64,000 nt of DNA from Terriglobia bacterium (GTDB lineage: Bacteria > Acidobacteriota > Terriglobia > Terriglobales > Acidobacteriaceae). The stretch is taken from NCBI GenBank assembly GCA_963724105.1, contig CAVRTD010000002.1, positions 29,650 through 93,649 on the forward strand, written 5' to 3'. The translations under genes were made by a program, and so were the position numbers. The notes below the pieces were generated by a model, which worked only from the letters and a program-made list of their open reading frames with translations, made no database searches and was not told where the DNA came from. Position 1 is the stretch's first letter. Each line of letters begins with the position of its first letter. Below are positions 28,085 through 64,000 of the stretch, one piece after another.

Positions 28085-28099
28085 TGACTTACTAAGTCA
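28085..28099. promoter_or_regulatory. perfect 15-bp palindrome TGACTTA-C-TAAGTCA upstream of the NHLP precursor/export operon
   Basis: Seen directly in the sequence, ~175 nt upstream of the ATG at 28274 in a 364-bp intergenic region. Function is not established. Confidence 0.3.
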
Positions 28100-28273
28100 G
28101 TAATTCAATGGAGTTTTTCAGTTGTTCCCGCCCCGGGCAAGCAGCAATCTATCTATGCAACTGGAACACAGCGGGCCGAAGCAATCTCGGCGCGACGACC
28201 AGTTCTCATTTTCGATTGGCCTCCGCATTGCGGTTCATGCGGGATGAACAAACTCAGAAGGAGATTCGGCAAG

Positions 28274-28555
28274 ATGAGCCATCACGACCCTCAATTTCAA
28301 TCGGCTATTCGCCAGGTACTCCGGCGATCCGCCATAGATCAGGATTTTCGCCAGTTGGCGCTGAAAGATAGCACGGCGGCTTTCGCTAAATTTGGCATCG
28401 TTCCGCCTGCGGACGTCACGGTGGATTTCATTGACAACTTCGGGAAGCCGAGGAAGACCATTGTGCTCCCTGACCCAGTGGCACAGGTAGAGGAACTAAC
28501 AGACGAGGACTTAGAGGAAGTAGCCGGGGGATGTGTCCTGGCAAGCACCATCTAG
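28274..28555 (+). CDS. NHLP/Nif11-type RiPP precursor peptide: 86-aa leader ending VAGG, 7-aa core CVLASTI
   Basis: Start chosen at MSHHDPQF (RBS GAAGGAG 8 nt upstream). The leader reads ...AIDQDFRQLALKDSTAAFAKFGIVPPADVTVDFIDNFGKPRKTIVLPDPVAQVEELTDEDLEEVAGG|CVLASTI. It has the nitrile-hydratase-like leader layout with a classical double-Gly cleavage motif. The NHLM-type export genes follow directly. Confidence 0.8.
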   Translation: MSHHDPQFQSAIRQVLRRSAIDQDFRQLALKDSTAAFAKFGIVPPADVTVDFIDNFGKPRKTIVLPDPVAQVEELTDEDLEEVAGGCVLASTI

Positions 28556-38010: not shown

Positions 38011-38550
38011 ATGAGAAAAATTTTTTACATCATGGGTATTTTGGAAGACAGTGATATGGATTGGCTTGCCGCACATGGAACGGCGAAGTTTTTGGAGCCG
38101 GGCACTGTGCTGGTGCGTGAAGGTGAGCCCATCGACTCCGTTTACATTCTGCTTGATGGCCATCTATCTGTCATTAGCCAGCGTCTGGACCGGGAAATCG
38201 CGTCTCTTTCTTGCGGAGAAATGCTCGGGGAGATCTCATTTGTCGATTCCCGTCCCCCCTCGGCATCAGTGGTAGCTGGTCGGGAATCCTATGTGCTGGC
38301 TTTGTCACGCGATGTTTTGACTACTAAGTTAGGAGATGATTCAGGTTTTGCAGCCCGCTTTTATCGCGCGGTAGCTACGCTGCTGGCAGATCGCCTGCGC
38401 ACGACTGTGGGCCAATTGGGTTATGACATGCAAAAGCAGACAGCAGACAGTGATTATCTGGACGATGACTGGATGGAAAACATCTCATTCGCAGCGGCCC
38501 GGTTTGATCAGTTGCTCAAGAAATTCGGTTTAGGCCAGCCAGCGGCATAG
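38011..38550 (+). CDS. cyclic-nucleotide-binding domain protein without DNA-binding domain
   Basis: LEPGTVLVREGEPIDSVYILLDGHLSVI...GEMLGEISFVDSRPPSASVVA is a canonical cNMP-binding (CAP_ED) motif. At 179 aa it has no HTH tail. Confidence 0.85.
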   Translation: MRKIFYIMGILEDSDMDWLAAHGTAKFLEPGTVLVREGEPIDSVYILLDGHLSVISQRLDREIASLSCGEMLGEISFVDSRPPSASVVAGRESYVLALSRDVLTTKLGDDSGFAARFYRAVATLLADRLRTTVGQLGYDMQKQTADSDYLDDDWMENISFAAARFDQLLKKFGLGQPAA

Positions 38551-38569
38551 CACACGCGAGCGCGGTGTG
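38551..38569 (+). terminator. GC-rich hairpin directly after the last plus-strand gene (weak terminator candidate, no U-tract)
   Basis: CACACGCG-AG-CGCGGTGTG starts 1 nt after the TAG at 38548-38550, in the 92-bp convergent gap. Confidence 0.3.
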
Positions 38570-38642
38570 ACATCCAAATGGCACTGGAGAATTCGCTGAG
38601 ATTCTGAGGGTGGACTCGATGTGGAATAAATGCGGGGAGCAA

Positions 38643-39872
38643 CTAGCCGAGGATGGCAGGCAGCGCGCTGGCAGGTCTGTCTGGTAAATCGAAACCTGTT
38701 GAAATAGGCATGGAAGGACCTAAGTAGCGCAACGTAAGCACGGTTATATCGTCAGACTGAGGGGCGCCAGCTGAGAACTCACGAATAGACTTCAGAAGTC
38801 CTGCGACCACTTCTTCCAACGGCAAGGTACTCGTTTCCTCTAAAAGAGTCTGCAGGCGCTCACCTGAAAATTCATTCTCTTCCGTGTCAAAAGCTTCCGT
38901 GACGCCATCTGTATAAAGAAAGAGACCCTCGCCCGGTTTTAAGCAGAGCTTTTCTGTAGGGTATGTTGCACCCTCCAAAACTCCTAGGACCGGCCCTCCA
39001 TCGCCGCTGGTAAGTTGGGCATGGCCGGCGAAGAAGCGATAGGGCATACTGTGACCGCCTACGCTGAATTCCAGCTCTCCGGAAACGGTGTTCAGAACTC
39101 CATAGAACATCGTGACGAACATTGCGGGCACATTTTCTCTGCACAACAGCTCATTTACGATGCTCAGGCAATCACCCGGGGAAGAAGATCGACCTGCCGT
39201 GGCGCGCATCAGGGCCCGGGTCGCAGTCATGAACAGGCCTGCCGGGACGCCTTTGCCGGCAACGTCGCCAATCACAAAGCCAATTCTTTCCGCATCGATT
39301 GGAAAGTAGTCATAGAAGTCGCCACCGACCATGCGGGCTGTGATCATCTCCGCGCAAAGCTCCAGGCCGGATCCTTTCATTCCTGGTTGCGAAATCTGTG
39401 GCAGCATTGCGTGCTGAATTCGAGATGCCAGATCAAGCTCACACTCCACCGCCATCAGCTGCTTGTGTGTTCTCGCGGCCTCTTTGATCCGCTGCAGTTC
39501 CCGCACGGTTTTTTGAAGGGTAGATTCGACATCAGTGAAATCAATGGGCTTGGTCAAAAAATCAAAAGCACCGCGGTTCATCGCGGCGCGGATATTCTTG
39601 AGATCGCCATAGGCGGAAACCACAATTGTCTTGAGGGAGCGCGGCATTTCAGTCAAATGCGATAGCAGCGTCAAGCCATCCATCTCCGGCATATTCAGGT
39701 CGCTGAGAACAATTTCAATAGAAGGGTCTTCCCGCAGGGCTTCTACGGCGTTGCGCCCGTTGCTGGCAAAGCGGAACTCAAACTCTTTGCTTTCAATCTG
39801 CCGCCGAAACTTTCTCCTGACAAGAACTTCCAGGTCAGTTTCATCGTCCACAACAAGTATTCGAACTGGCAT
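38643..39872 (-). CDS. response regulator with PP2C/SpoIIE-type phosphatase output
   Basis: Start [11 protein letters not shown] (RBS AGGAG; the ATG lies 1 nt after the upstream TGA). REC motifs are present (..[12 protein letters not shown]..). The PP2C part reads GGDFYDYF...[17 protein letters not shown]...DGVTEA...DDITVL. Confidence 0.85.
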
Positions 39873-39873
39873 C

Positions 39874-41430
39874 TCAACTCCTGGGTAGGCGTATAACAAA
39901 CTCGGCGAATTCACCATCGGTGGAGTTCAACAACAATTGTCCCCGGTGGCCGCGGGTCACAATGTCATGGCTGATGGAGAGCCCCAACCCCGTTCCCGAT
40001 CCTGCAGGCTTGGTAGTAAAGAACGGCTCAAAAATCTTTTCCCGAATGGATTGCGGTATCCCATTGCCGTTGTCGCGCAATACGATTTCCACTGACTTTT
40101 CCAGGTTTCGCGTGCTCACCCGAATCCTGGGAGTGAACTGGGCGCAACTTTTCTTCTTTTCCAGAACAGCCTGATAGGCATTCATTGCCAGGTTCAGGAC
40201 AACCCGGCCAAGGTCCGTGGGACGGCAGAGCAGTTTGCTGAGCGTGACATCGTAGTCAGTCTCAAGCACGACCTCGCTATTCGACCCGCCGCCTGTCGCG
40301 GTGGCGCGGGCAAAGTTAAGGTAGCGCGCAATCACCTCGTTGATATCGGCAAGCTCCGCTTCACCAGCGCCTGAGTTGCAGTGCAGCAACATGCCATTCA
40401 CAATCTCGTTTGCCCGTGCGCCGTGTTCTCTTATCTTTTGCAAGTCCTCGGTTAAATCGGCGAGATGCTCTCGAATCGCTGGCGCCGAGGGACCCAGCTC
40501 TCGATCTATTTCCTGGACGGTATCTGCCGCCGTGATTGCGAAATTGATGACAAAATTAAGAGGATTTTTGATCTCATGAGCTACCCCTGCAGTAACTTCT
40601 CCCAGTGATGCCAGGTGTTGCTGAACCAGGATCTGGCGGCGGTACCTCTGTTTATCCAGCGCCGAGGAGATACGCGCCCGCAGCAACACGGATTCAAAAG
40701 GCTTCTGGAAGTAATCTTCTGCGCCCATGGAAATGCACCTCACTACGCTTTCCATGTCGTTGAGCGCAGAAATTACAATAATGGGCAGGTCTGGCTTTGC
40801 GGATTTCAGGTGTTTCAATACCTCATATCCGTTAATGCCGGGCATAAGTATATCCAGCAGGACCAGGTCGTATGCATTTTTACTGGCAAGATCAATGGCC
40901 TCAGCTCCATCGGCTGCCACGGAAACGCGGTACTTAAGCCGCTGAAGCATGCGCGCCAGCACATCACGATTCGCCGAGTCATCATCGACCACCAGCAAAT
41001 GACCGAGTGAATCAGACATCTCCGCCTTGGCGGCTGCAGGGCTCGCCACCACGGGGCCATTCAGGGAGCCTGTTTGCACAAATCTCGTAAGTTTTCCGGT
41101 GGCTTGCAGCAGTCGTTGCACATCGGCGAATTGAGGGGAAGATTTGTCCAGCGGTCGCGAAATCAAAGACTCGTAGATTTTCTCCAGTCGTGGCTTGAGA
41201 TTCTCACGCAAGTCCGAGACCCGCTGCTCTGTCGCATCTTTCTCAGAAGATGGAAGCGACAGCTCTATCTGGTTCAGAATATCTTTGCCCAAGACAGCAA
41301 TCTGCTCGAAATAGATCACGTCATCGCTCGCGCCGGCTTCCAGTGCATCTTCAATCAGCAACTGGCTGTAACCGAGAAGATGGTTCACCGGCGTGCGGAG
41401 ATCGTGTCGTAGTAGCTGCGTTTGTAACAT
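39874..41430 (-). CDS. hybrid histidine kinase: N-terminal extra H-box segment - REC - HisKA - HATPase
   Basis: The N-terminus [19 protein letters not shown] looks like a DHp H-box. REC is [14 protein letters not shown]...[13 protein letters not shown]. The second H-box is [12 protein letters not shown]. The ATPase part is DNGNGI...GTGLGLSI. Confidence 0.85.
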
Positions 41431-41497
41431 TGTCCTGTCGGGATTAAAAACTTATTGGAATCAAGAGCAAGAAAAAGACCGGCGCTTGGGAGACCGG

Positions 41498-41875
41498 CTA
41501 GACCTGGCTCTTGGCGGCAAGAAGCCTGTCCATCTTTTCCAACAGTCGAGGTAGTTCGATTGGCTTGGTATCGTAATCGTCGCAACCGGACTGCAACGCA
41601 CGTTGCCGGTCGCTTTCCATAGCGTGCGCCGTAAGCGCGATAATGGGAATGGAGTTTACCAGCGGATTCCCTTTAATCGCAGACGCTGCCTCCCATCCGC
41701 TCATCTTAGGCAGGCTCATATCCATCAGAATGAGGTCGGGTTTGGCAGTCTGCGCCATGGCGACTCCTTCCACGCCGTCGATGGCTATTTGAACCTCAAA
41801 GCCTTTGCGCAGCAGGCGCCGCGATAACATGTCGCGATTCATCTCGTCATCTTCAACAATCAGTATGTTGGGCAT
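41498..41875 (-). CDS. CheY-like single-domain response regulator
   Basis: MPNILIVEDDEMNRDML...LILMDMSLPKMSGWE...IIALTAHAM; 125 aa. Confidence 0.9.
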   Translation of the reverse strand: MPNILIVEDDEMNRDMLSRRLLRKGFEVQIAIDGVEGVAMAQTAKPDLILMDMSLPKMSGWEAASAIKGNPLVNSIPIIALTAHAMESDRQRALQSGCDDYDTKPIELPRLLEKMDRLLAAKSQV

Positions 41876-41901
41876 TGGGATTCCTCACAGTCTTTGTTTC
41901 A

Positions 41902-44900
41902 TTAAATTACAGGCACTGCAGCTGGGATATCGGCAGGCCTGTTCATCGAACGTGCCAGCACAGCGATCAGTTCCTTCCGGGAGACGGGCTTGAGCAGATA
42001 GTCGTTCGCTCCCATGGAGAAAGCAAAGTTTTTGTCGTCAACAATGGACATCATGATGACAGGAATGGATGAGAGAGCAGGATCGTTTTTCAGTTCGCGC
42101 AGAAGCGACCAGCCATCCATGCCAGGCATGATTACGTCCAGCGTAACGGCGGACGGTTTAAGCTCGCGGGCTTTCCGCAGCCCTTCCTCGCCAGTGTACG
42201 CCGACTCCAGGCGAAGTCCCGCGCGGGAAAGATAACGACTGATCAGGTCATGCATGACCGGATCATCGTCCACCACGAGCACAGTTTGTTCGTAATTTTC
42301 AAATGTTACGTCTGGTTCCATTTCCGCCAACTCCTTTTTGTATTGAGATACCGCAGCCGGCAACTTCACGTGGAAAGCACTTCCCTCGCCCGGCCGGCTA
42401 TTCACGACGATGTCACCACCCATCATTTGGCAGAACTGCCGGCTAATGGCCAATCCAAGACCGGTCCCGCCGTACTTCCGGGTAACAGAAGAATCAGCCT
42501 GCTGAAAGGGTACAAATAACTTGCTTAGCTGTTCCGGCGTCATGCCAATGCCGGTATCACGGACGGTAAAGCACACCCAATCTCGCCCATCCACGCTGTA
42601 TTTGTTTGCGCCGATGGTAAGGACCCCATTGAAAGTGAATTTGGCCGCGTTGCTGGCCAGATTCAGCAGCACCTGCCGCACCTTGGTGACATCCGCCTCC
42701 ACGCTTCCAATCCCTGCGGGAATCTCCATCTGCACGGCGTTCCCGTTCTTGCCGATAAGAGGAGCGGCCACGGCGAGCACTTCTCTTAAAAGGGTTTCCA
42801 CCGAAAAAACCTCAAGGTACAGCTCCATCCGCCCTGATTCGATTTTTGCAATGTCAAGAATGGAATTGATCAGGCTTAGCAAATGCTTCCCCGCATGATG
42901 GATCTTTTCCAGGTCAGAAACGAACGCCGTTGCATCCGTTTCTTCCGCTTCCTCTTTCAACATCTCGCTGTATCCGATGATGGCATTCAGCGGTGTACGC
43001 AATTCATGGCTCATGCGCGCTATGAATTCACTCTTGGCCCGATTCGCCTGTTCCGCCGCGGTTTTTTCGGCGCTCTTCCTTTCGCGTTCCTGTATCTCAG
43101 CTGAGAGCTGTGAAAGTAAGCGCGTATTTCCGATCGCCAGGCTACTTTCATTGGCAACCGCCTGCAGCAAACGCAGGTCTGACGATGTGTATGGATGGTC
43201 GAATCGTTTTGGCCCCAGGCTGATGATCCCAATGAGATTGGCGGCGCTCATCAGCGGCAGCAGCAATTGCGCATGCAAAGTCTTGAGGGCTTCCTGTTCT
43301 TCCATTGGCAGCGTATGCACGGTTGAACCAGGATCGTCAAAATAAATGAGCATCGGTCCGCCATTTTCCGAGAGCAGCTCAAACACTTTGCTTTGCTCCT
43401 CCAGGTGCAGCATCGTCGCGGATGCGTGGCCTGTCCAGTGCTCCAGACAGTAGCGATTTTGTTTTTCCAGAAGCACCGCCACATAGGAAATACCCAGAGC
43501 AGACGTAAGATGAGCACTCACCGCATCCAGCAATGCCTTTGTCTCGCGAAAAGTCCCTGCCGTATCCAGAAACGTAGCCAGGGTCTGCTCCGATCCATAG
43601 TCTTCTGGAAAAAAGCGGCGATCCATCCATGAATTGGCCTTTTGCAGGACCGGTGACTGCAACACAATGAGCAGGACCATCCCGCCGATTAAGCTCTGCA
43701 ACTGCACAGCCTTTGAGAAATAGAGAAGAGATGCCAGCAAGAGACAGACCGTGGCGATTTTAAGTGTCGAGATGCTCCGCTGATCAAGGGCATATTTAAG
43801 GCTTTGGCGAACCAGCCCGCGGACTTCCGGCGAGCGATGAACCACAATGACATAGGCCAGCGTGCAGGGAAAAAGCACCAGCGAACATAACGCGGTGGCC
43901 GCAAATGACCAGGGAACTGCCTGAAATGCAGATTTGCCGCGAACCAAAGCGATGACAATCCACAAACACGCAGGCCCAAGACTGGCCAGTGTGCCGAGCC
44001 ATATCAGCTTAAGCCTGCGATACTCATCGCTCCCGCGTGGGACCTGCAGCAGTTTCAGCAGCAGGGTAATGAAACAAACGGCAATTGCTGTGGCGGTTAG
44101 ATACTGAATGCTGTGCTGAAGTTCAGGATAACCAAGCCTTACCGTCCGCATTCTTGCGAAATTGGTTTCCTCCGCCGCAACCGCAATTGCGTCTGCTGCC
44201 ACGTTGACGGCGATGGGAACAATCAATATCCACTTAAGCCAGGGAATCCGTCTATTCCATCCAGCAGGACGAGGGAAATAAATTCCAAACAGCAATAGCC
44301 AGATGCCGAATGATTCCGGCACTACGCTTTCATAGATGAATGCCGGAACACGCAATCCGGTTTCCCATCCTGGCTGCACGGCAAGCAGAGAGAAACTTAA
44401 CAAGAGTGCGAGCAACAGCCACGCAAGAGGATCATACGAGCGCTCAAATGTCACCCAGAATCCCAGGAACAAGCAGAACGCGGGCAGCACGATCTGCGTA
44501 ACAATCAGAATTGTAAGAGTGTCTGACTTGGGCGGCGCCGGGCGCTTGGGTTGCAGAGTAATTTCAAAATGTGAGAGCGTCCTGTCTGCGTGTTGTACTT
44601 GCACTTTCAGGTGATCGCCGGGATTCAAGTGCTCCACGGAGCCATGCAGGATTGAATCGCTATAGAAGCGCTTTCCATCGATTTCTGTCAGCGTGTCGCC
44701 GGGGCGCAAACCGGCGCTCTTGCTTTCCGGCAGAGCGTAAGTAATCGTCTGCTTTTGGTCATAGATGAATGGCTCGCGAGCGCGCGAAGTAGCATAACGA
44801 ATCTCATTTACGATGTGCAGCACATAGAACCACTGGAAGCCGGCTGTTACAACCAGCATCAGGGCCAAAAGACAGTAACGCACTATACGTGCGTGTGATT

Positions 44901-44958
44901 TCAAAAACATCAAACGACGGTCCATGAGATCCATTGAATCGGAATCAAGCGTGTTCAC
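41902..44958 (-). CDS. large hybrid sensor kinase: PDZ-like - multi-TM - GAF-like - HisKA - HATPase - REC
   Basis: The PDZ-like segment is [41 protein letters not shown]. About 10 hydrophobic helices follow. The H-box is [19 protein letters not shown]. The ATPase part is DTGIGM...[11 protein letters not shown] is [13 protein letters not shown]...[13 protein letters not shown]. Confidence 0.85.
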
Positions 44959-46700
44959 GGTCGTTCCTGCCTTGTATCCAACTCAGCAAGTTGCGACGGG
45001 CTTGTTGCAAAAGAACTTCCATCGGCGTTCAACCGCGGAGGAAATGCGCGCAGCTCTCTCTGGAAATAGCGGCTGTACCGCTCGCGGAATGGTGCAGGGC
45101 GGTCTGAAGCTTTTTCTTCCAGCAGCGACGGCAAAACATCGTCAACAAAATACATTTCGGCCTGGCGGTTCCCTTTTATTCCGACCAACCCGCGCGGCGT
45201 GCAGGAAAAAAAATCCTTCAACCGCTGAAAAGCACGCTCTGAGACATTAATCTTGTTGGCCGCGCCTGACATCACCATGCGCGATGCGAAATTAACAGCA
45301 TCACCCCACACATCAAAAGCAAATTTGCTTGTTCCAACCACGCCCGCGATTACAGAACCTGTGTGAATGCCAATTCTCATGGACCAGCCGGGATGGGGCC
45401 GGCTCTGCTGAGCGGCCATCACATACTGCAGCATTTCTATCGAAGCCAGCAGCGCGTCAACCGGGTGAGATGGCGTGCGCTCGGGGAGACCAGACAGAAA
45501 AATGTAGCTGTCGCCCACCGTTTTCAGCTTCTCCAGGCCGTAACGATCAACGATGGTGTCGAAAGCCGTGAAATATTCGTTTAACAGTGTAACCAGTTCA
45601 TCGGCCGTAAGTTTTTCCGTGGACGACGTGAAACTCACAAAGTCGGTGAAAATGATGGTGACATCCTCGAAATAGGTTGGCGAGACCGAACCGCGAAGCT
45701 GGAGTTCCTCGCACACCTTCCTGGGAAGAATACTCAAGAGCAGCTTCTCGGTGGTTTGTCTCTCGGCCTCAAGTTGAAGCAGGGCAGCTTTTAGCTGCTC
45801 AGTTTGTTCTCTTTCGAGATCACGTGACTGTTTACGGTCCAGCAGAGCGCGCACACGAGTGCGAAGAAGTGTGGCGTTAAAAGGCTTCAGAACGTAATCG
45901 TCCGCTCCTGTTTCGATGCAGGCGACAACTTTCTCGGTGTCGTCGACACCTGAAATCATGATAATGGGTATGTCTTTTGCAGGCTGGCCAGACTTTGCTG
46001 CCCGAAGAACTTCGAACCCGCTGGCTCCCGGCATCACCAGATCAAGAAGGACCAGATCGATGCGCCTCTTGTCGATCATTTGCAGAACTTCATGGCCATT
46101 CACCGCGAATATTACATCGTACTTGTCGCGGCGAAGTATGCGCGCGAGCAAATCGCGGTTTGCCTCGTCGTCATCAGCAACCAGTACAACCTGTTTTTCA
46201 CCTGCAATGGAAAGCCGCGCGTCGTCAGGAGTAAGTAAACCCGGCACAAGCCGCGGAGCTTCCGCCACTGGAGCGATGATCTGCTCAAACAACTTCAAAA
46301 ACTGGTGGACGGTGAATTCAAGTTCCAGAAGATCTTCGATCATGCCGGGATCCGCGTGGCCGCGCACCATAACTTGAATTTGCCTGATTCTTTCCTGAGT
46401 CTCTTTAGCGCGCAACAAAAGCCTCTGCCCTTGTGAGGGATCGCCGTCAACTCGCTGTCCGGAGCGGCCGGGTGCGGTCATCTGAAGGTCTTGCAGCAAT
46501 GACACTGCCTCCGCCTTTAGCTGGTCTAAAGGTCCGGCCAGCCCAGCCTCGCCTGCCGCTTGTCCAATTTCCATCTTCAGCAACTCACAACTGGTGACTA
46601 TATGGTTGACGCAGTCTCGAAGTTTAAGTTGGGCATCACCAGATAAGGCTGTCGATTCAGCCGGCAAGCCTGATTTCGAAGATGTGGAGGTGAAGTTCAT
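44955..46700 (-). CDS. response regulator with class III adenylate/guanylate cyclase output
   Basis: REC is [15 protein letters not shown]...[14 protein letters not shown]. The cyclase part is [16 protein letters not shown]...KTVGDSYIF...[16 protein letters not shown]...[13 protein letters not shown]. The stop overlaps the next gene start by 4 nt, and the ATG lies 2 nt after the lanC stop. Confidence 0.85.
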
Positions 46701-57932: not shown

Positions 57933-58472
57933 TCAGGCCACGGAAACGTTTTGAAAATGTTGCTCAGGCGCGGGCAAGGGAACGTACCCACCGAGATCGA
58001 CAACGACGGAACTGCGAACGACTTCAATCGATAGAACCAGCCGATGCTGATTACGGTGACTCTCAACAACGCCTTCAATCCCATCAAAAGGGCCACCAGT
58101 AATCCGCACTCTGGAACCAATCTCTGCATACTCGCACGGTTGCATCTGGTATCCAGACTTGACAGCTGATTGAATTGCGCTGATTTCGTGGTCAGGGATG
58201 ATAGCTGGAGATTTAGCAGTACCGAGAATACGTATGACGCCTGGGGTCAACAGGATGGGACCGCTACCCATAGCCTTGATGCGACAAAATACATATCCGG
58301 CAAATAATGGAAGCTGTATTTCCTTCCATCGATCAGACCAGCGCCTGCGTACAACATAAGAAGGAGCAAATGTCTCGTAATTCTTTTCCGACAGGAGTCG
58401 CGCAGCAGTGAATTCATGCTGGTACCGTACGTAGATCGCACACCATGCGCTGTCATACTGGCTGAGGTCCAT
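57933..58472 (-). CDS. specialised NusG paralogue (RfaH/LoaP/UpxY-like antiterminator), first gene of the operon
   Basis: Start MDLSQYDSAW with a strong RBS GAAGGAG. The NGN-like N-terminus is WCAIYVRYQHEFTAARLLSEKNYETFAP. The KOW motif is IGSRVRITGGPFDGIEGVVES. Confidence 0.8.
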   Translation of the reverse strand: MDLSQYDSAWCAIYVRYQHEFTAARLLSEKNYETFAPSYVVRRRWSDRWKEIQLPLFAGYVFCRIKAMGSGPILLTPGVIRILGTAKSPAIIPDHEISAIQSAVKSGYQMQPCEYAEIGSRVRITGGPFDGIEGVVESHRNQHRLVLSIEVVRSSVVVDLGGYVPLPAPEQHFQNVSVA

Positions 58473-58921
58473 ACCGTCTCCTTCGGTCAACGTGAGTTTG
58501 CCGATACAGATGAATCGCACACTCTTCACCTCAAGCGGATGGAAAACAGCAGGACGTAATCTTTGTATAGAGGTGTGAGGGAGCCACCGGTTGCGGCAAG
58601 GCAGGCTGCCGCCATTTTGAGTCCCAACTTCTTACTCATTCACTAACCCTTACCGGGCCAGTCACAGTGAGAATTAGCAATGCCATTGCCAAAGCATGCG
58701 TTCTATGAAGAACCGTGCTTTCCATTGTGCATTTTGATTCACAATGATTATGTTTGTGATGGTGATTCCCACTTTGAAATTATGGATCCGCTGCTCGTTC
58801 CGCTTTTAGTTGGAGTTCAACGACTATCATTTCCATTCTGGTTGACGATTGCTGCGGTGCCGGACAGGAACAACCGTAAAGGTGGCAAATTTAATTTTGT
58901 CCGACTTATCCTCAGCCAGGC

Positions 58922-58957
58922 ACGACTAAGGTGTCCGCCAGCGGAAAAATATGTCCA
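58922..58957. promoter_or_regulatory. tandem palindromes TGTCC-N6-GGA(A/C)A spaced 20 bp apart, in the long region upstream of the NusG-led operon
   Basis: TGTCCGCCAGCGGAAA (58922-58937) and TGTCCAGCGGTGGACA (58942-58957). The 3' part GTCCAGCGGTGGACACCTTT is repeated exactly at 63739-63758. Confidence 0.4.
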
Positions 58958-59068
58958 GCGGTGGACACCTTTCGGCGGCAATCGTGAGAGAAAGACCTTT
59001 GAATGGAAGCCGCCCGGGGTAAGATCGCATTAGAAGCTGCCGGTGGAGCGCGGTCCCGTGTAAAAGAA

Positions 59069-60331
59069 CTATTGGATGGGGGTTGACGGCGTGAATTTTG
59101 GAACCATAATCACGATGTCATATCCAAAAATAAGCCGCTCCAGCTCTTCATCAACTGGGCCAAGCGCTTTAAATCTCCGGCGAAGGCCGCGAAGATCGTA
59201 GAGAGTCCAGCCTTCCGGCAATCGATGGTCCACCAGCGGCTTAATGAAAGAAACCGCAGAACTTGTATCCTGTACCAGATCAAAATTCTCCAGTTGCGGT
59301 GGCTGGCCGGGCGCACCAAAACTGATCTCTGCTCCCTTCACTCCAATGATGTTGATATGAAGAGAGGTGGAATGATGGCCTTCTGCCAATTCAGCCACAA
59401 AATTGCCCAGATCGTCGTTATGTAGAGGATTAATCCCCTTATAAAGGTGGGCGGAGCCAAACTTGAGCAAGACTTTGGCGGGTTTTCCCTCAGCCCGCGT
59501 CTGGTCATCATAATAACGGGCGAACAACGCCTTCATCATTAGCGCCCGCTGAAGGTTGGAATCATAAGCTTCACCCTGCAGATATTTGTGGTAGATATCG
59601 CGGCTTTCGATGAAGGCATTCAGAATGGCTTGCGAAGCCGGATTCCCTTCCCGAGCCACCGAGTTCTTAAGTTCCAGAATCTCGCTGTCCGGCACAGACA
59701 GCATAAAAATATCGTTCACTTTCCCCGAAGCCACGGTCCGCGCATAGGCTTGATCATTTTCGCGGAACATCTGGCGTATTTTGGCAGCCGCCGCCTTGCC
59801 GGGATGAGAATTCAAGAGGCTCTGTAGCAAAAACCTGGACTCTCCGTAAAACTCCTGATCAAGCCCCCATATATGGAATTTTTCATTTTCCGCAGTATGG
59901 CTGCAATGGGCCAACAGATCTGTTTCCTCCTGAAGACGATAGAATGGGAGGGCGTCTGGAAATTCTTTCTGAAACTCAGCAACCTGGTGGCGTGAATCCG
60001 TGGAGCGGGCCCACTTCTCTAATTGGCCGGCCATCATTGGGCCGGTTTCAATTGCCATGGAATGAAACCCTTGCGGAACGGCAAGGTCACATATTGCAGA
60101 AGAGAACTCGGGGGTTTCCGCATTGCCGTGTTGTTCACCGATGAGCACAAACTGGGCGGAGGCAATGGCCTTGCGCAGAACCTCAGCTCCTGCGCCAGAT
60201 AAATGCCCATCCTTCAGGTTGAGATCATAGCGGTTCTCAAGAAGTTGTTTTCCGAGTTGTTCCTGCGCCAACATACATCCAAGGCCGGCAATTCCTAGAA
60301 ATACCACAGCCGCCAGTTTGGTGATCACCAA
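59069..60331 (-). CDS. secreted Tiki/ChaN/erythromycin-esterase-superfamily-like protein
   Basis: 420 aa with a signal peptide (AAVVFLGIAGLGCMLAQ). FVLIGEQHGNAETPEFSSAICDLAVPQGFHSMAIETG resembles the GE.H(G)..E...Gf...E N-terminal signature of that superfamily (recalled from memory). The gene follows lanKC by 80 nt. Confidence 0.45.
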   Translation of the reverse strand: MVITKLAAVVFLGIAGLGCMLAQEQLGKQLLENRYDLNLKDGHLSGAGAEVLRKAIASAQFVLIGEQHGNAETPEFSSAICDLAVPQGFHSMAIETGPMMAGQLEKWARSTDSRHQVAEFQKEFPDALPFYRLQEETDLLAHCSHTAENEKFHIWGLDQEFYGESRFLLQSLLNSHPGKAAAAKIRQMFRENDQAYARTVASGKVNDIFMLSVPDSEILELKNSVAREGNPASQAILNAFIESRDIYHKYLQGEAYDSNLQRALMMKALFARYYDDQTRAEGKPAKVLLKFGSAHLYKGINPLHNDDLGNFVAELAEGHHSTSLHINIIGVKGAEISFGAPGQPPQLENFDLVQDTSSAVSFIKPLVDHRLPEGWTLYDLRGLRRRFKALGPVDEELERLIFGYDIVIMVPKFTPSTPIQ

Positions 60332-60411: not shown

Positions 60412-63111
60412 TCAGGATCCGACGTGCATTGCAACCAGCGCCTGTTCTTCTTCCGAGAATAAAGTACCATCTCTTGCAAACAAGGAGTCAAGCATAAAAT
60501 CGTTTTGCTGATTTCCAAGCAGGCGGTTAAGAAATAGAGCAATGCCTGCGCTTCCTGTACCGAAATCACATGACAGCCTGAATAGTGAATTTCCGGGAAA
60601 TGCGATTCCCTTCCGTTCCACACGGAAATTCATTATTCCCTCTGCAAGTCTGGCAGCACTTTCCCGATACCGGGAGTGTGCGGTCAGGTCGTGCATGTCG
60701 AGAAGAAACTCGCCGATGCCTGCCAGGCCAGTGAATCGTCCTGCAAAAACCGCGTATTTCCGGTCGGTATCCAGATAGATCTTATCCAAAACCTGTTCAT
60801 AGCAGGATTCACCGAGCAGTCGGTAGTAGCGCGCCGTTGCAATCCCGATTCCAGCACTCCCGTGCTGCCAGTATGGATAGACCGGCGACGTTGATCCGGT
60901 TGACATGGGCCACGTAAGTCCCGCATCTTTATTTTGCAATCCGAAACTCAGATCAAAGTCCAAAGCACGCCGCCCAACATAAAGAAAGCGCTCATTCTTT
61001 GTTGCGAGATAGAGGTAGAGCAGGAACAGAGCAATGCCGGAAGATCCGCGGGCAAGGCCGAGAGGCGCACCTTCGCGTTCACCCCAGTAGCAGCCGCGTC
61101 CGTCTTCTTTACACTGCTCGACAAGGTGATTCCCGGCTTGCACGGCGTGCGCAAGGTAAACTCTGTCGTTCGTAGCCATCCAGAAACGCAGGTCTGCCAT
61201 CCCCCACCCGGAAACGCCATGGAAGAGATCGCAAGCATCAAAAGCCAGGGGATGTGTATGGACCTGGCGCATTGCAGTCTCTGCTTCTGCCTGCAACCCC
61301 ATTTCAAGCAGACTCCATGCAATTCCAGCGAGCCCGATATACAGACCTGGAGCATATGTCCCATGCGTCAAACGCTTGTTGCTGATCCACTGCAGAACAC
61401 GGGAGGGCACGCCTCCTGTGATTTTGTGCCATGCATAAGCCACACCACATGCCCCAAAAGCGAGGCTGAGCGGGTTGGTAGCAAAGAGCCTGGCATCGGC
61501 CGGAAACAGCCTATCTTCGCGTTCATACGTTACCGTACTCTTCCAGTGGTCGACGATGCGCTCCAACACGCAAGGGTAGTTCTCCCGCCTGAGTTCATGC
61601 ACGGGCTCCACTTCGACGCTGGAATCTTCATCCATCAGGCAACCGAGACGGGCGGGTGTTGTAGGCTGACCTGGATCATGATTCATCAATCCAATAATCA
61701 TGCTTGTGATTGATCTGGGCAGTCGAGAATCCTTGCGTATCGATTCCATCAGCTCACGAATCGCTTCTCTTTTAAGTTGAATGAGGCCATTCCAGGGAAA
61801 AAGGTAGGCAAACAGGACCGCTCCAAGCGAATAGTAATCACTTTCAATGTCGGCAGGCATACCCTGGAGTCGATTCGGCGAGACGAATCCAGGAGTAAAA
61901 AGATTGGTGGGACGATCAATCTCTTTCTGGTAAGCACCTTCGAAGTCGATAAGCTTCAGGGAAGTGCCGCCGGCCAATACCATCACATTATTCGCGGAGA
62001 GATCCGCGAAGACGATGCCACGGCTATGCAATACTTCGATCATCCGGATGAGATTCAGAGAGATTTCAACAAAGGTCCGCTGCCATTCGACATAGTCTGT
62101 CTGCAAAGGCCTGGTGCGGAGCAAAATATTGTGCGCCGCGGAGTAACGGCCCAGTACCATTCCGTCAATGTATTCTTCAACTAGGAACCAATGCTCCCAA
62201 TCCTGGAAGAGATCCACGGGTTGCGGGGCTATTCCTGTATCGGCGATGACTGTGAGCAGGCGGTGTTCCTTCTTGAGCAGTTCCACCGCATCGTAACCGT
62301 CAAACGATTCATTCACGAACGGCCGGGCTTCCTTGATCACGACGGGCTGCCGGGTGAGATGGTCAAACGCCTTATACACGCCTCCGGCATTGGAAAAATC
62401 AATTACACTTTCGATCGTATAACGCCCTTGCTTAAGAGTTGGGCTGGCTTCGTTGTTGTCCGCTGGCTCGTCTGGAGCCAGTGGACCACATACCCAGTCC
62501 GGCGTAATGGGATACGGAAGCCTCTGATCGGGGACTGAACTCCCGTCAGGGGTGATAAGAACGGGAACACTCTCGCCTTTTACATTCAGCTTCTCACGGA
62601 GGCGCATTCCACCGTATCGATAGAAAACAACGCCACTATCTTTATAACGGCGATCTGAGAGAATGTAGGGCCCCTGGAATCCCTTAAGTTCTTGACGCAG
62701 GGATTCAATCAGTTCCAGAAAGCAATGGTCATTTTGAGGGTAGATGGTAATGAATTTGGAAGATCCCCCTCGAGGGAAGTTTTTGCCGTTCACAAGCTGC
62801 AATACCCGCAGATCCAGGGAAAATTTAAACGTGGTGTCCTGACGCTGGAGGAGCAGTGCGCTCACGCGATCCAGCACTTCACGCGCATTTGCCAGCGAGC
62901 TGGAAACATGTATCTTCCAACCCTGGTATGGACAGAGATTTTGTTGTGAGGAGCAAACAAACCAGAGCTGTTGCCGGCGAATCTCCCATCCCCCTGACAA
63001 CCGAGACGAGACTAGGTCATAAAAATCCTTAGTGCGCGGCACATAGTAGTCAAATGTTTCGTCATAATCGCTTTGCACCAGGCTATAAAGCCCATATGCT
63101 CTGGTTCGCAT
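60412..63111 (-). CDS. lanKC: class III lanthipeptide synthetase (lyase - kinase - Zn-ligand-less cyclase)
   Basis: The lyase motifs are QGWKIHVSS and SKFITIYP. The kinase motifs are GGVYKAF..VVIKEA, FADLSANNVMV and KLIDFEGAY. The C-terminal LanC-like repeats (GSSGIALFL, YWQHGSAGIGIA, CDFGTGSAGIALFL) lack the WC and CH zinc ligands. The probable start is MRTRAYG (63111, RBS GAAGGGA); the track gives a TTG at 63132. Confidence 0.85.
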   Translation of the reverse strand: MRTRAYGLYSLVQSDYDETFDYYVPRTKDFYDLVSSRLSGGWEIRRQQLWFVCSSQQNLCPYQGWKIHVSSSLANAREVLDRVSALLLQRQDTTFKFSLDLRVLQLVNGKNFPRGGSSKFITIYPQNDHCFLELIESLRQELKGFQGPYILSDRRYKDSGVVFYRYGGMRLREKLNVKGESVPVLITPDGSSVPDQRLPYPITPDWVCGPLAPDEPADNNEASPTLKQGRYTIESVIDFSNAGGVYKAFDHLTRQPVVIKEARPFVNESFDGYDAVELLKKEHRLLTVIADTGIAPQPVDLFQDWEHWFLVEEYIDGMVLGRYSAAHNILLRTRPLQTDYVEWQRTFVEISLNLIRMIEVLHSRGIVFADLSANNVMVLAGGTSLKLIDFEGAYQKEIDRPTNLFTPGFVSPNRLQGMPADIESDYYSLGAVLFAYLFPWNGLIQLKREAIRELMESIRKDSRLPRSITSMIIGLMNHDPGQPTTPARLGCLMDEDSSVEVEPVHELRRENYPCVLERIVDHWKSTVTYEREDRLFPADARLFATNPLSLAFGACGVAYAWHKITGGVPSRVLQWISNKRLTHGTYAPGLYIGLAGIAWSLLEMGLQAEAETAMRQVHTHPLAFDACDLFHGVSGWGMADLRFWMATNDRVYLAHAVQAGNHLVEQCKEDGRGCYWGEREGAPLGLARGSSGIALFLLYLYLATKNERFLYVGRRALDFDLSFGLQNKDAGLTWPMSTGSTSPVYPYWQHGSAGIGIATARYYRLLGESCYEQVLDKIYLDTDRKYAVFAGRFTGLAGIGEFLLDMHDLTAHSRYRESAARLAEGIMNFRVERKGIAFPGNSLFRLSCDFGTGSAGIALFLNRLLGNQQNDFMLDSLFARDGTLFSEEEQALVAMHVGS

Positions 63112-63226
63112 ACATAATCCCTTCGTGCTCAATACTTGTAGCGAATCCTAAATACAATTTTGCGGCCGGCGATCTGGCGCCGAATATTCAACCTTGCTCC
63201 TGTTTTTCATTTCCAATTCCTGCAAA

Positions 63227-63263
63227 CCGTTCCGAACGATTGCCAGCAAGAGGTTCAGAACGG
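63227..63263 (-). terminator. imperfect hairpin after the class III precursor gene (attenuator candidate)
   Basis: CCGTTC-c-GAAC ... GTTC-a-GAACGG gives 10 paired bases with one mismatch pair and a 15-nt loop. On the minus-strand RNA it starts 15 nt after the TAA and is followed by UUUGCAGG. Confidence 0.4.
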
Positions 63264-63277
63264 TCGCTAGAATCGAT

Positions 63278-63418
63278 TTACTCATGATGAAGTGGACTGG
63301 CCTCTTCTGCTTGTACCGTAGGACAAATGCCGCTCGCTGTACTCATCAACATCTCTTCTCCAGCTATAACGTCCGGGGCCCATGTGGTCAACTTTTGCAG
63401 CGCAAGGATGTTACCCAT
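63278..63418 (-). CDS. class III lanthipeptide precursor (46 aa), not in the ORF track
   Basis: Hand translation: MGNILALQKLTTWAPDVIAGEEMLMSTASGICPTVQAEEASPLHHE*. A strong RBS AGGAGAAAAATCT precedes the ATG. ILALQKL matches the class III leader ILxLQ box. STASGIC is a Ser-x-x-Ser-x-x-Cys unit. Confidence 0.75.
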   Translation of the reverse strand: MGNILALQKLTTWAPDVIAGEEMLMSTASGICPTVQAEEASPLHHE

Positions 63419-63716
63419 AGATTTTTCTCCTGATTTGAGATGCGTGAAAATGCTTTGCAGCCTACTTTTTCTGCTATGGCCAGGAGATATGCAAGAAAAT
63501 AGCCATTCTTATCGATGCAGGCATGGAGGTAGCTCAAACTACAACCGGAAATAATCATCACCCGCTGGTTACGATGCTTCAGAACCGCTCTTATCGCGCG
63601 GCAGCAGTTGGATAAAACTCGCTTCGTTCAAGCTGTTCCGTTTCGGAAAATTGCCGCAAATTTTACGAAAAGAAAAATTACCGCGAGCGTTTATTGCAGG
63701 AGGAAAGCGTTACCTC

Positions 63717-63753
63717 TGTCCGCAGGTGGACAACCAGCGTCCAGCGGTGGACA
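63717..63753. promoter_or_regulatory. tandem palindromes TGTCC-N6-GGACA / CGTCC-N6-GGACA spaced 21 bp apart, upstream of the class III precursor operon
   Basis: TGTCCGCAGGTGGACA (63717-63732) and CGTCCAGCGGTGGACA (63738-63753), about 300 nt upstream of the ATG at 63418. The layout matches 58922-58957. Confidence 0.4.
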
Positions 63754-64000
63754 CCTTTTGCCGGGCGATTTACGGTTTTTCCAGTGGACGAACAGCATTA
63801 TTCCACGGCATATTAGAGCCCGTGCACTTAAGCGAACTTCGGATCGGATGGCCTAATTGTTTTGCTGGGATAAATTGTTCAAGACTTCACAGAGTTTCAT
63901 ATCGGTAAATTTCATAAGTTACGTGGTTCTGAATTGGCCAGACAAGTGCATCATTCATGGTTTTCTGCATTCATGCATTGCGGGGCAGCCGAGCCAGTAC

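Follow-up and report, generated by a model that had tools for sequence, protein, structure and literature searches.

The tandem palindromes upstream of the two minus-strand RiPP operons of this genomic island are probably the upstream activator sequences of a GAFTDA-type, NtrC-class enhancer-binding response regulator; we put the probability of this reading at roughly 80%, with binding predicted from the sites, the promoters, and their conservation. The window, i.e., the whole stretch of 64,000 nucleotides that was analyzed (G000:C2:29650-93649), comes from an assembly of 5.05 Mb with 54% GC. An earlier note on the same DNA had linked the two operons through shared regulator-binding sites, and this link was supported by our results, the binding itself being a prediction.

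Sequence reading and pattern searches confirmed that both upstream regions carry two 16-bp palindromes 20 to 21 bp apart, as had been claimed, with start-to-start spacings of 20 bp at site A and 21 bp at site B (Table 1). The earlier coordinates were right for site B (63717-63753), while site A, placed before at 58922-58957, lies 10 bp higher, at 58932-58967. The 20-nt stretch described as identical between the two regions, GTCCAGCGGTGGACACCTTT, was also recovered, at 58953-58972 and 63739-63758. Beyond the tandem, alignment of the two upstream regions revealed no similarity.

Table 1. Positions of the tandem palindromes, predicted promoters, and associated genes (window coordinates, or contig coordinates where preceded by C2)
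Feature	Position	Strand	Sequence or detail
Site A palindrome, promoter-distal	58952-58967	none	TGTCCAGCGGTGGACA; exact, obeys TGTCC-R-N4-Y-GGACA
Site A palindrome, promoter-proximal	58932-58947	none	TGTCCGCCAGCGGAAA; one mismatch
Site B palindrome	63717-63732	none	TGTCCGCAGGTGGACA; exact
Site B palindrome	63738-63753	none	CGTCCAGCGGTGGACA; the palindrome farther from the LanKC promoter and nearer to the divergent permease promoter
Promoter A, predicted sigma-54 -24/-12	58676-58691	-	TGGCAATGGCATTGCT; 241 bp downstream of tandem A
Promoter B, predicted sigma-54 -24/-12	63490-63505	-	TGGCTATTTTCTTGCA; 212 bp downstream of tandem B
Divergent sigma-54-type promoter, predicted	63935-63950	+	TGGCCAGACAAGTGCA; ~182 bp from tandem B, reads toward the ADOP permease
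UpxY-family NusG paralogue	57933-58475	-	First gene of the split-LanB operon behind promoter A
ops-like element	58602-58613	-	GGCGGCAGCCTG; leader A, ~+50 from the predicted start, before the NusG-paralogue ATG
Class III lanthipeptide precursor, 46 aa	63278-63418	-	MGNILALQKL...
Class III lanthionine synthetase LanKC	60412-63132	-	NF038151, 753 bits (cut-off 575)
ADOP-family duplicated permease	C2:93739-96174 (start at window 64090)	+	TIGR03434, 727 bits (cut-off 622)
Response regulator	C2:96263-97663	+	REC, Sigma54_activat (208 bits), AAA_lid_14, HTH_8
Histidine kinase	C2:97632-99047	+	Adjoins the activator

The core pattern GTCC-N6-GGAC was found four times in the window against 0.70 expected, a count reached in none of 100 shuffles, and three of the four matches fell inside the two tandem regions. 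Genome-wide, there were six exact TGTCC-N6-GGACA sites, two of them in the two tandems. Sites A and B were also the only tandems with 0 to 1 core mismatches in the genome, every other one having 2 to 3. Based on the 111 sites with ≤1 mismatch in 5.05 Mb, approximately 0.005 pairs spaced by 20 to 21 bp would be expected, compared to the two observed. The genome-wide search that had been proposed as a check on the motif thus returned near-unique sites, and six exact sites without any further good tandem in 5.05 Mb rule out a dispersed repeat.

Tandem A as a whole (58928-58971) forms a larger dyad made up of the outer halves and their flanks, AAGGTGTCC...GGACACCTT. In the relatives described below, the outer T/A flanks were conserved in 82% and 78%, with lower values for the inner flanks. 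The larger dyad and the conserved outer flanks suggest a symmetric dimer-of-dimers complex. Between tandem A and promoter A, we also observed everted extra half-sites on the plus strand (GGACA at 58862-58866 and TGTCC at 58902-58906), as well as a -24-like CGGCAC in 58855-58908 without a correctly spaced -12 element.

Since TGTCC-N6-GGACA is at the same time TGT-N10-ACA, the form of NifA-type enhancers, sigma-54 promoters were sought. Promoters A and B have the exact -24 GG/-12 GC spacing (TGGCAC-N5-TTGCW) and lie on the strand of the downstream gene. The pattern TGGC-N7-TTGC had only two matches on the minus strand of the 64-kb window, each of them between a tandem and its first gene. With a genome rate of 1.76e-5 per bp per strand for TGGC-N7-TTGCW, approximately 0.005 to 0.008 matches would be expected per region. 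Genome-wide, however, TGGC-N7-TTGC was no more common than the corresponding N5 to N9 spacings; single promoter matches are therefore weak, and it is their position, strand, and conservation that carry weight. Transcription from promoter A would start near 58665, and the predicted start of promoter B lies near 63479, approximately 61 nt ahead of the precursor ATG. For the divergent plus-strand promoter, a start near 63961 is predicted.

No sigma-70-type promoter was found in 58450-59100 or 63250-64000, nor did either local region contain a -24/-12 element at the canonical distance of ~74 bp from the tandem. The sequence CGGCACCGCAGCAAT at 58869-58855, considered as a closer promoter A, was rejected due to wrong spacing. 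The local site-to-promoter distances (212, 241, and 182 bp) are longer than the 61 to 78 bp typical of the relatives, which counts against the enhancer reading. The IHF consensus WATCARNNNNTTR had no match between the sites and the promoters. A/T tracts are present there, and it can be speculated that these bend the DNA in place of IHF.

In leader A, a 37-aa ORF (MSKKLGLKMAAACLAATGG..., 58639-58526) was seen just after the predicted start. It overlaps both the ops-like element and a terminator-like hairpin (58593-58612), and it is therefore probably leader RNA, not a precursor gene. On the minus strand, the operon behind site B has the order 46-aa precursor, LanKC, and a 420-aa protein.

To see the architecture across relatives, 400 genomes of the same order were scanned for GTCC-N6-GGAC-N{4,8}-GTCC-N6-GGAC, using the reversed pattern as a control. 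The tandem was found in 37 of the 400 genomes, and the control gave sparse hits. A 6-bp gap separated the palindromes in 20 of the 30 tandem loci listed. Using a relaxed -24/-12 scorer with a background of 0.00104 per bp per strand on 29 loci (own locus excluded), we observed an element starting 70 to 78 bp from the tandem in 15 loci and 61 to 64 bp from it in another 6, i.e., 21 of 29 with a phased -24/-12 element where ~0.8 would be expected by chance. The 61 to 64 bp class is one helical turn shorter than the 70 to 78 bp class. The genes behind these promoters encode ADOP permeases or MacA-like adaptors. In two loci, L045 and L100, the tandem is followed by a promoter at 72 to 74 bp and then by a tightly packed single operon encoding MacA, an ATPase, a protein X, an enhancer-binding protein (EBP), and a histidine kinase (HK).

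The extended consensus from these loci was T-GTCC-R-N4-Y-GGAC-A, in which the R and the Y, positions never imposed by the search, were each 93% conserved. All four local sites obey this R/Y rule. As for the other exact single sites in the genome, the one at C1:445545 sits in a longer and different palindrome, the one at C6:88935 lies within an ORF, and two more break the R/Y rule. The longer perfect palindrome, GCTTATGTCCGATATCGGACATAGC (G000:C1:445530-445575, outside the window), contains the 16-mer and is a different, single site; it is found in a divergent intergenic region beside a small REC-like ORF, with no sigma-54 promoter nearby.

Site B occupies a divergent intergenic region, and on its plus-strand side are the genes for an ADOP permease, an EBP, and an HK (G000:C2:93739-99047). 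The island had been described before as lacking a DNA-binding regulator. This reflects the window boundary at position 64000: an activator with REC-AAA+-HTH_8 build, together with its adjoining kinase, is encoded in the operon that diverges from site B, the activator gene lying 2.5 kb from site B and beyond that edge. The kinase has hydrophobic segments at approximately residues 22 to 45 and 53 to 78 with a short loop between them, i.e., two membrane helices. Its signal probably reaches it by way of the permease, on the model suggested for BceS/BceB and VfmI/VfmG (PMC9306890). The genome has one rpoN (Sigma54_DBD at C10:1209121, E = 4e-59) and 18 full sigma-54 activators.

The sigma-54-contact loop of the C2:96263 activator reads GAFTDA, not the canonical GAFTGA, a point against the enhancer reading. 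GAFTDA was found in all 77 subfamily hits (Acidobacteriota MAGs, conserved-tier loci L079-L158), always with the REC-AAA+-HTH_8 build; the other EBPs of the genome had G[AS]F[TS]GA in the 11 where the loop was found. The constant link of the tandem to -24/-12 promoters argues that the GAFTDA loop is functional. The activator scored below the cut-off for the GlrR equivalog (304 versus 763 bits) and also for the NifA and NtrC models.

Three genomes of the same genus (G376, G365, and G347) keep LanKC (53 to 57% identity), the intergenic region, the ADOP permease, the EBP (73 to 74% identity), and the HK. In all three, a -24/-12 element lies 50 to 75 bp ahead of the ATG of a homologous precursor (MPNILKLQTL..., MSNVLRLQRL..., and MSSILHLQQL..., respectively), and the tandem follows 97 to 266 bp further upstream, in a degenerate form in G347. 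G376 and G365 have a second tandem, 86 and 70 bp, respectively, from the divergent permease promoter. Because the surrounding sequence has diverged, the tandem and promoter elements stand out as phylogenetic footprints. Matches to the strict tandem within the genus were confined to the three genomes that have the 74% activator orthologue. For site A, the best match to the NusG paralogue in the genus was 50% identical, and 18 unrelated UpxY-led loci that were examined had no tandem. LanB_C relatives were set aside for promoter comparison, being 31 to 35% identical and from other phyla.

The activator most likely to be the preferred binder of the tandems is the adjacent one, C2:96263-97663. Its closest paralogue, C4:438176-439516, is 62.7% identical and encoded in an operon with the order ADOP-like, ATPase, EBP, HK; all other activators of the genome are ≤40% identical to the adjacent protein. 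We consider it unlikely that the sites, as sigma-54 enhancers, are bound by this paralogue or by both proteins instead of by the adjacent activator alone. Both have GAFTDA and nearly the same recognition helix (SRSALYRRMQKYG in the C4 paralogue versus SRGTFYRRMEKYG in the adjacent activator), the pattern LGLSRGxxYRRMEKYG being common to both activator tiers and absent from six other activators of the genome. Furthermore, at L045 and L100, the canonical tandem stands at the head of operons that encode activators of the 57 to 65% identity tier, which is widespread in Acidobacteriota. However, the adjacent activator, the tandem, and LanKC co-occur in all four genomes of the genus having them, and a MacA-like efflux operon elsewhere in the genome is preceded by a diverged tandem. 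At that operon (G000:C10:1499534-1499660, outside the window), two dyads 20 bp apart have the same layout, with the sequences TGTGC-N6-GAACA and then ATTGC-N6-GAACA, ending 75 bp before the -24 box. Together with the differences in the C4 helix, the genus co-occurrence and the diverged tandem suggest separate specificities, and the latter suggests, without proving it, that each of the GAFTDA paralogues is insulated from the other.

The spread of the 57 to 65% tier within Acidobacteriota also puts the organism in Terriglobales/Acidobacteriaceae. The tandem adjoined this tier in 2 of 80 loci, and single sites were not enriched there. A general adjacency of the tandem to this tier across the phylum was therefore dropped, and the specific operons L045 and L100 were kept. 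Given how rarely the tandem adjoins this tier, the assignment of the activator to the motif rests on six operons from three lineages.

The sites had previously been assigned to the CRP/FNR family, with a cNMP-responsive regulator encoded elsewhere that would link the REC-cyclase and the cNMP-binding protein of the island to RiPP expression. The 5-N6-5 geometry stands, and both signaling genes were confirmed. They belong to a group at 38011-46700 encoding a cNMP-binding protein without an HTH (179 aa, 38011-38550), a REC-PP2C protein (38643-39917), two hybrid kinases, and a REC-adenylate/guanylate cyclase (44955-46700). The genome also encodes six CRP/FNR-type (HTH_Crp_2) proteins, all elsewhere and none in or beside the island. 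The half-sites TGTCC/GGACA, however, match neither CRP (TGTGA/TCACA) nor FNR (TTGAT/ATCAA), the search for a sigma-70 promoter at class I or class II distance was negative, and the sites lie 212 to 241 bp from the minus-strand sigma-54 promoters; the CRP/FNR assignment is therefore unsupported. In addition, the tandem of the relatives is helical-phase-locked to -24/-12 elements, its linked genes are those of NtrC-type activators instead of CRP proteins, and the cNMP-binding protein of the island has no HTH. We regard direct control by a CRP/FNR protein as very improbable. The Dickeya regulator VfmH interacts with CRP (PMC10714721), a precedent for cNMP cross-talk that, with the six CRP-type genes, leaves room for an indirect cNMP input, though nothing found here points to it.

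It is just as improbable that the palindromes are operators for a dimeric repressor of the PadR or TetR type, independent of sigma-54. Palindromic 16-mers in a divergent intergenic region beside an ADOP permease would suit such a repressor, and PadR-ADOP gene pairs are numerous in Acidobacteria. Yet no PadR- or TetR-type gene adjoins either site, the palindromes lie 180 to 240 bp upstream of the promoters and do not overlap them, and the fixed offset of 61 to 78 bp upstream of the -24 element in the relatives is the geometry of an activator. Structural hairpins instead of protein sites, whether a REP-like element or the intrinsic terminator of the LanKC operon upstream, are scarcely credible: the distal palindrome of site A with the adjoining ATTTTT was picked out as a terminator-like structure of the minus strand, ~100 bp past the final gene of the LanKC operon, but site B has neither an upstream minus-strand gene nor a T-run, the element is near-unique in the genome, the tandems of the relatives lie upstream of promoters, and an Rfam search gave no credible match.

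The reading as sigma-54 enhancers has clear parallels in known systems. In NifA and NtrC control (glnAp2), a pair of sites facing the same side of the helix, ahead of a -24/-12 promoter, activates transcription by looping. The NifA upstream activator sequence is TGT-N10-ACA (PMC2820453), and the local sites have the same outer triplets and spacing, whereas their inner bases, CC-R...Y-GG, are specific, and the local activator is a REC-type response regulator where NifA is of the GAF type. In Enterobacteriaceae, the GlrK/GlrR system (QseE/QseF) controls glmY and glmZ through several TGTCN10GACA dyads far upstream of a sigma-54 promoter; fusions reached -238 to -303, and the sites and promoter were conserved across species (PMC3045617). 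The NtrC-class response regulator, the TGTC/GACA half-sites, and the distant sigma-54 promoter are shared with the island. The local dyad, TGTC-N8-GACA within TGTCCR-N4-YGGACA, is, however, shorter by 2 bp, the sites number two instead of three, no IHF consensus lies between them and the promoter, and the targets are RiPP operons.

The Vfm system of Dickeya also resembles the island operon. An ABC/FtsX-type permease is encoded there together with a two-helix kinase with a short loop (PMC9306890, PMC10714721), and the REC-AAA+-Fis-HTH regulator VfmH has GAFTDA, not GAFTGA; a pull-down detected no interaction of VfmH with sigma-54 (PMC10714721). Sensing through the Vfm permease is a hypothesis only, for which the Bce analogy was drawn (PMC9306890). 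VfmF/G/H/I and the local module share the permease, the minimal-loop kinase, the GAFTDA regulator, and a location beside genes for secreted small molecules, a likeness of domain and operon build. The local permease is, in contrast, a duplicated ADOP protein whose island copy lacks a neighboring ATPase, and while Vfm acts through the AraC regulator VfmE with sigma-54 dependence unproven, the local -24/-12 promoters are explicit.

In the NisRK and SpaRK systems, as is proposed for the island, a two-component system beside the lanthipeptide genes controls biosynthesis and its own operon by autoinduction. Their regulators are of the OmpR type and act at sigma-70-family promoters, whereas the local regulator is predicted to be an AAA+ enhancer-binding protein working on sigma-54. 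The lantibiotic and Bce systems of Firmicutes are like the island in that a MacB/FtsX-type permease is a possible co-sensor for an intramembrane-sensing kinase. In Myxococcus, polyketide and non-ribosomal peptide genes are under the direct control of EBPs and -24/-12 promoters (PMC7910581), and sigma-54 control of FtsX permeases has been described in general terms (PMC12316311). Neither of these papers mentions lanthipeptides or Acidobacteria, nor does the former mention RiPPs. We found no published account of sigma-54 or enhancer control of lanthipeptide genes, nor of the motif. The mechanism proposed here would be canonical, with lanthipeptides as a new target class and a newly defined motif.

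According to this mechanism, the kinase, sensing its presumed signal probably through the permease, would phosphorylate the regulator. One regulator dimer would then settle on each palindrome of a tandem; the 20 to 21 bp spacing would place both dimers on the same helical face, where they would nucleate an active AAA+ ring. DNA looping over 180 to 240 bp would carry the ring to sigma-54 RNA polymerase at the -24/-12 promoters, which would be opened when ATP hydrolysis remodels the holoenzyme. The NusG-paralogue/split-LanB operon, the LanKC operon, and the operon of the regulator itself would thereby be co-induced, the latter as positive feedback. A more far-reaching version is possible but doubtful: the ADOP permease, the kinase with almost no loop, and the activator with its GAFTDA motif may form a Vfm/Bce-like peptide co-sensor for one of the lanthipeptides made by the island itself. 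The tandems would then complete an autoinducing, quorum-sensing-like sigma-54 loop that switches on both RiPP operons along with the sensor operon, and the diverged half-site (GTCC/GGAC versus GTGC/GAAC) would insulate it against the paralogous efflux regulon. Were this so, GAFTDA-type activators, including VfmH of Dickeya, would be genuine sigma-54 partners.

Motif scans agreed with the earlier note that the tandem motif is absent upstream of the export operon. A strict sigma-54 element, TGGCCTCCGCATTGCG, was observed at 28217-28232 (+), ~43 bp before an unannotated 92-aa ORF (28275-28553), and the export operon also seems to depend on sigma-54. The ORF resembles an NHLP-type leader ending in EEVAGG, followed by the 7-aa core CVLASTI. 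Roughly 120 bp upstream of the sigma-54 element lies a perfect palindrome, TGACTTAcTAAGTCA (~28086-28100), with no GTCC tandem; this may be the enhancer of a different activator.

RiPP clusters of acidobacteria are mostly silent in culture. With the CRP assignment replaced by a specific circuit in which the sites and the activator-kinase-permease operon are named and three promoters are predicted, the switch that is now proposed offers a possible route to turning silent clusters on, e.g., by supplying a laboratory host with an activator that is phosphomimetic or lacks its receiver. The constant pairing of the GAFTDA activator with -24/-12 promoters bears on the sigma-54 question for VfmH in Dickeya. 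Finally, the order-wide motif and its fixed offset of 72 to 74 bp provide a regulon predictor for a widespread, uncharacterized activator subfamily that is wired to MacAB/ADOP exporters.
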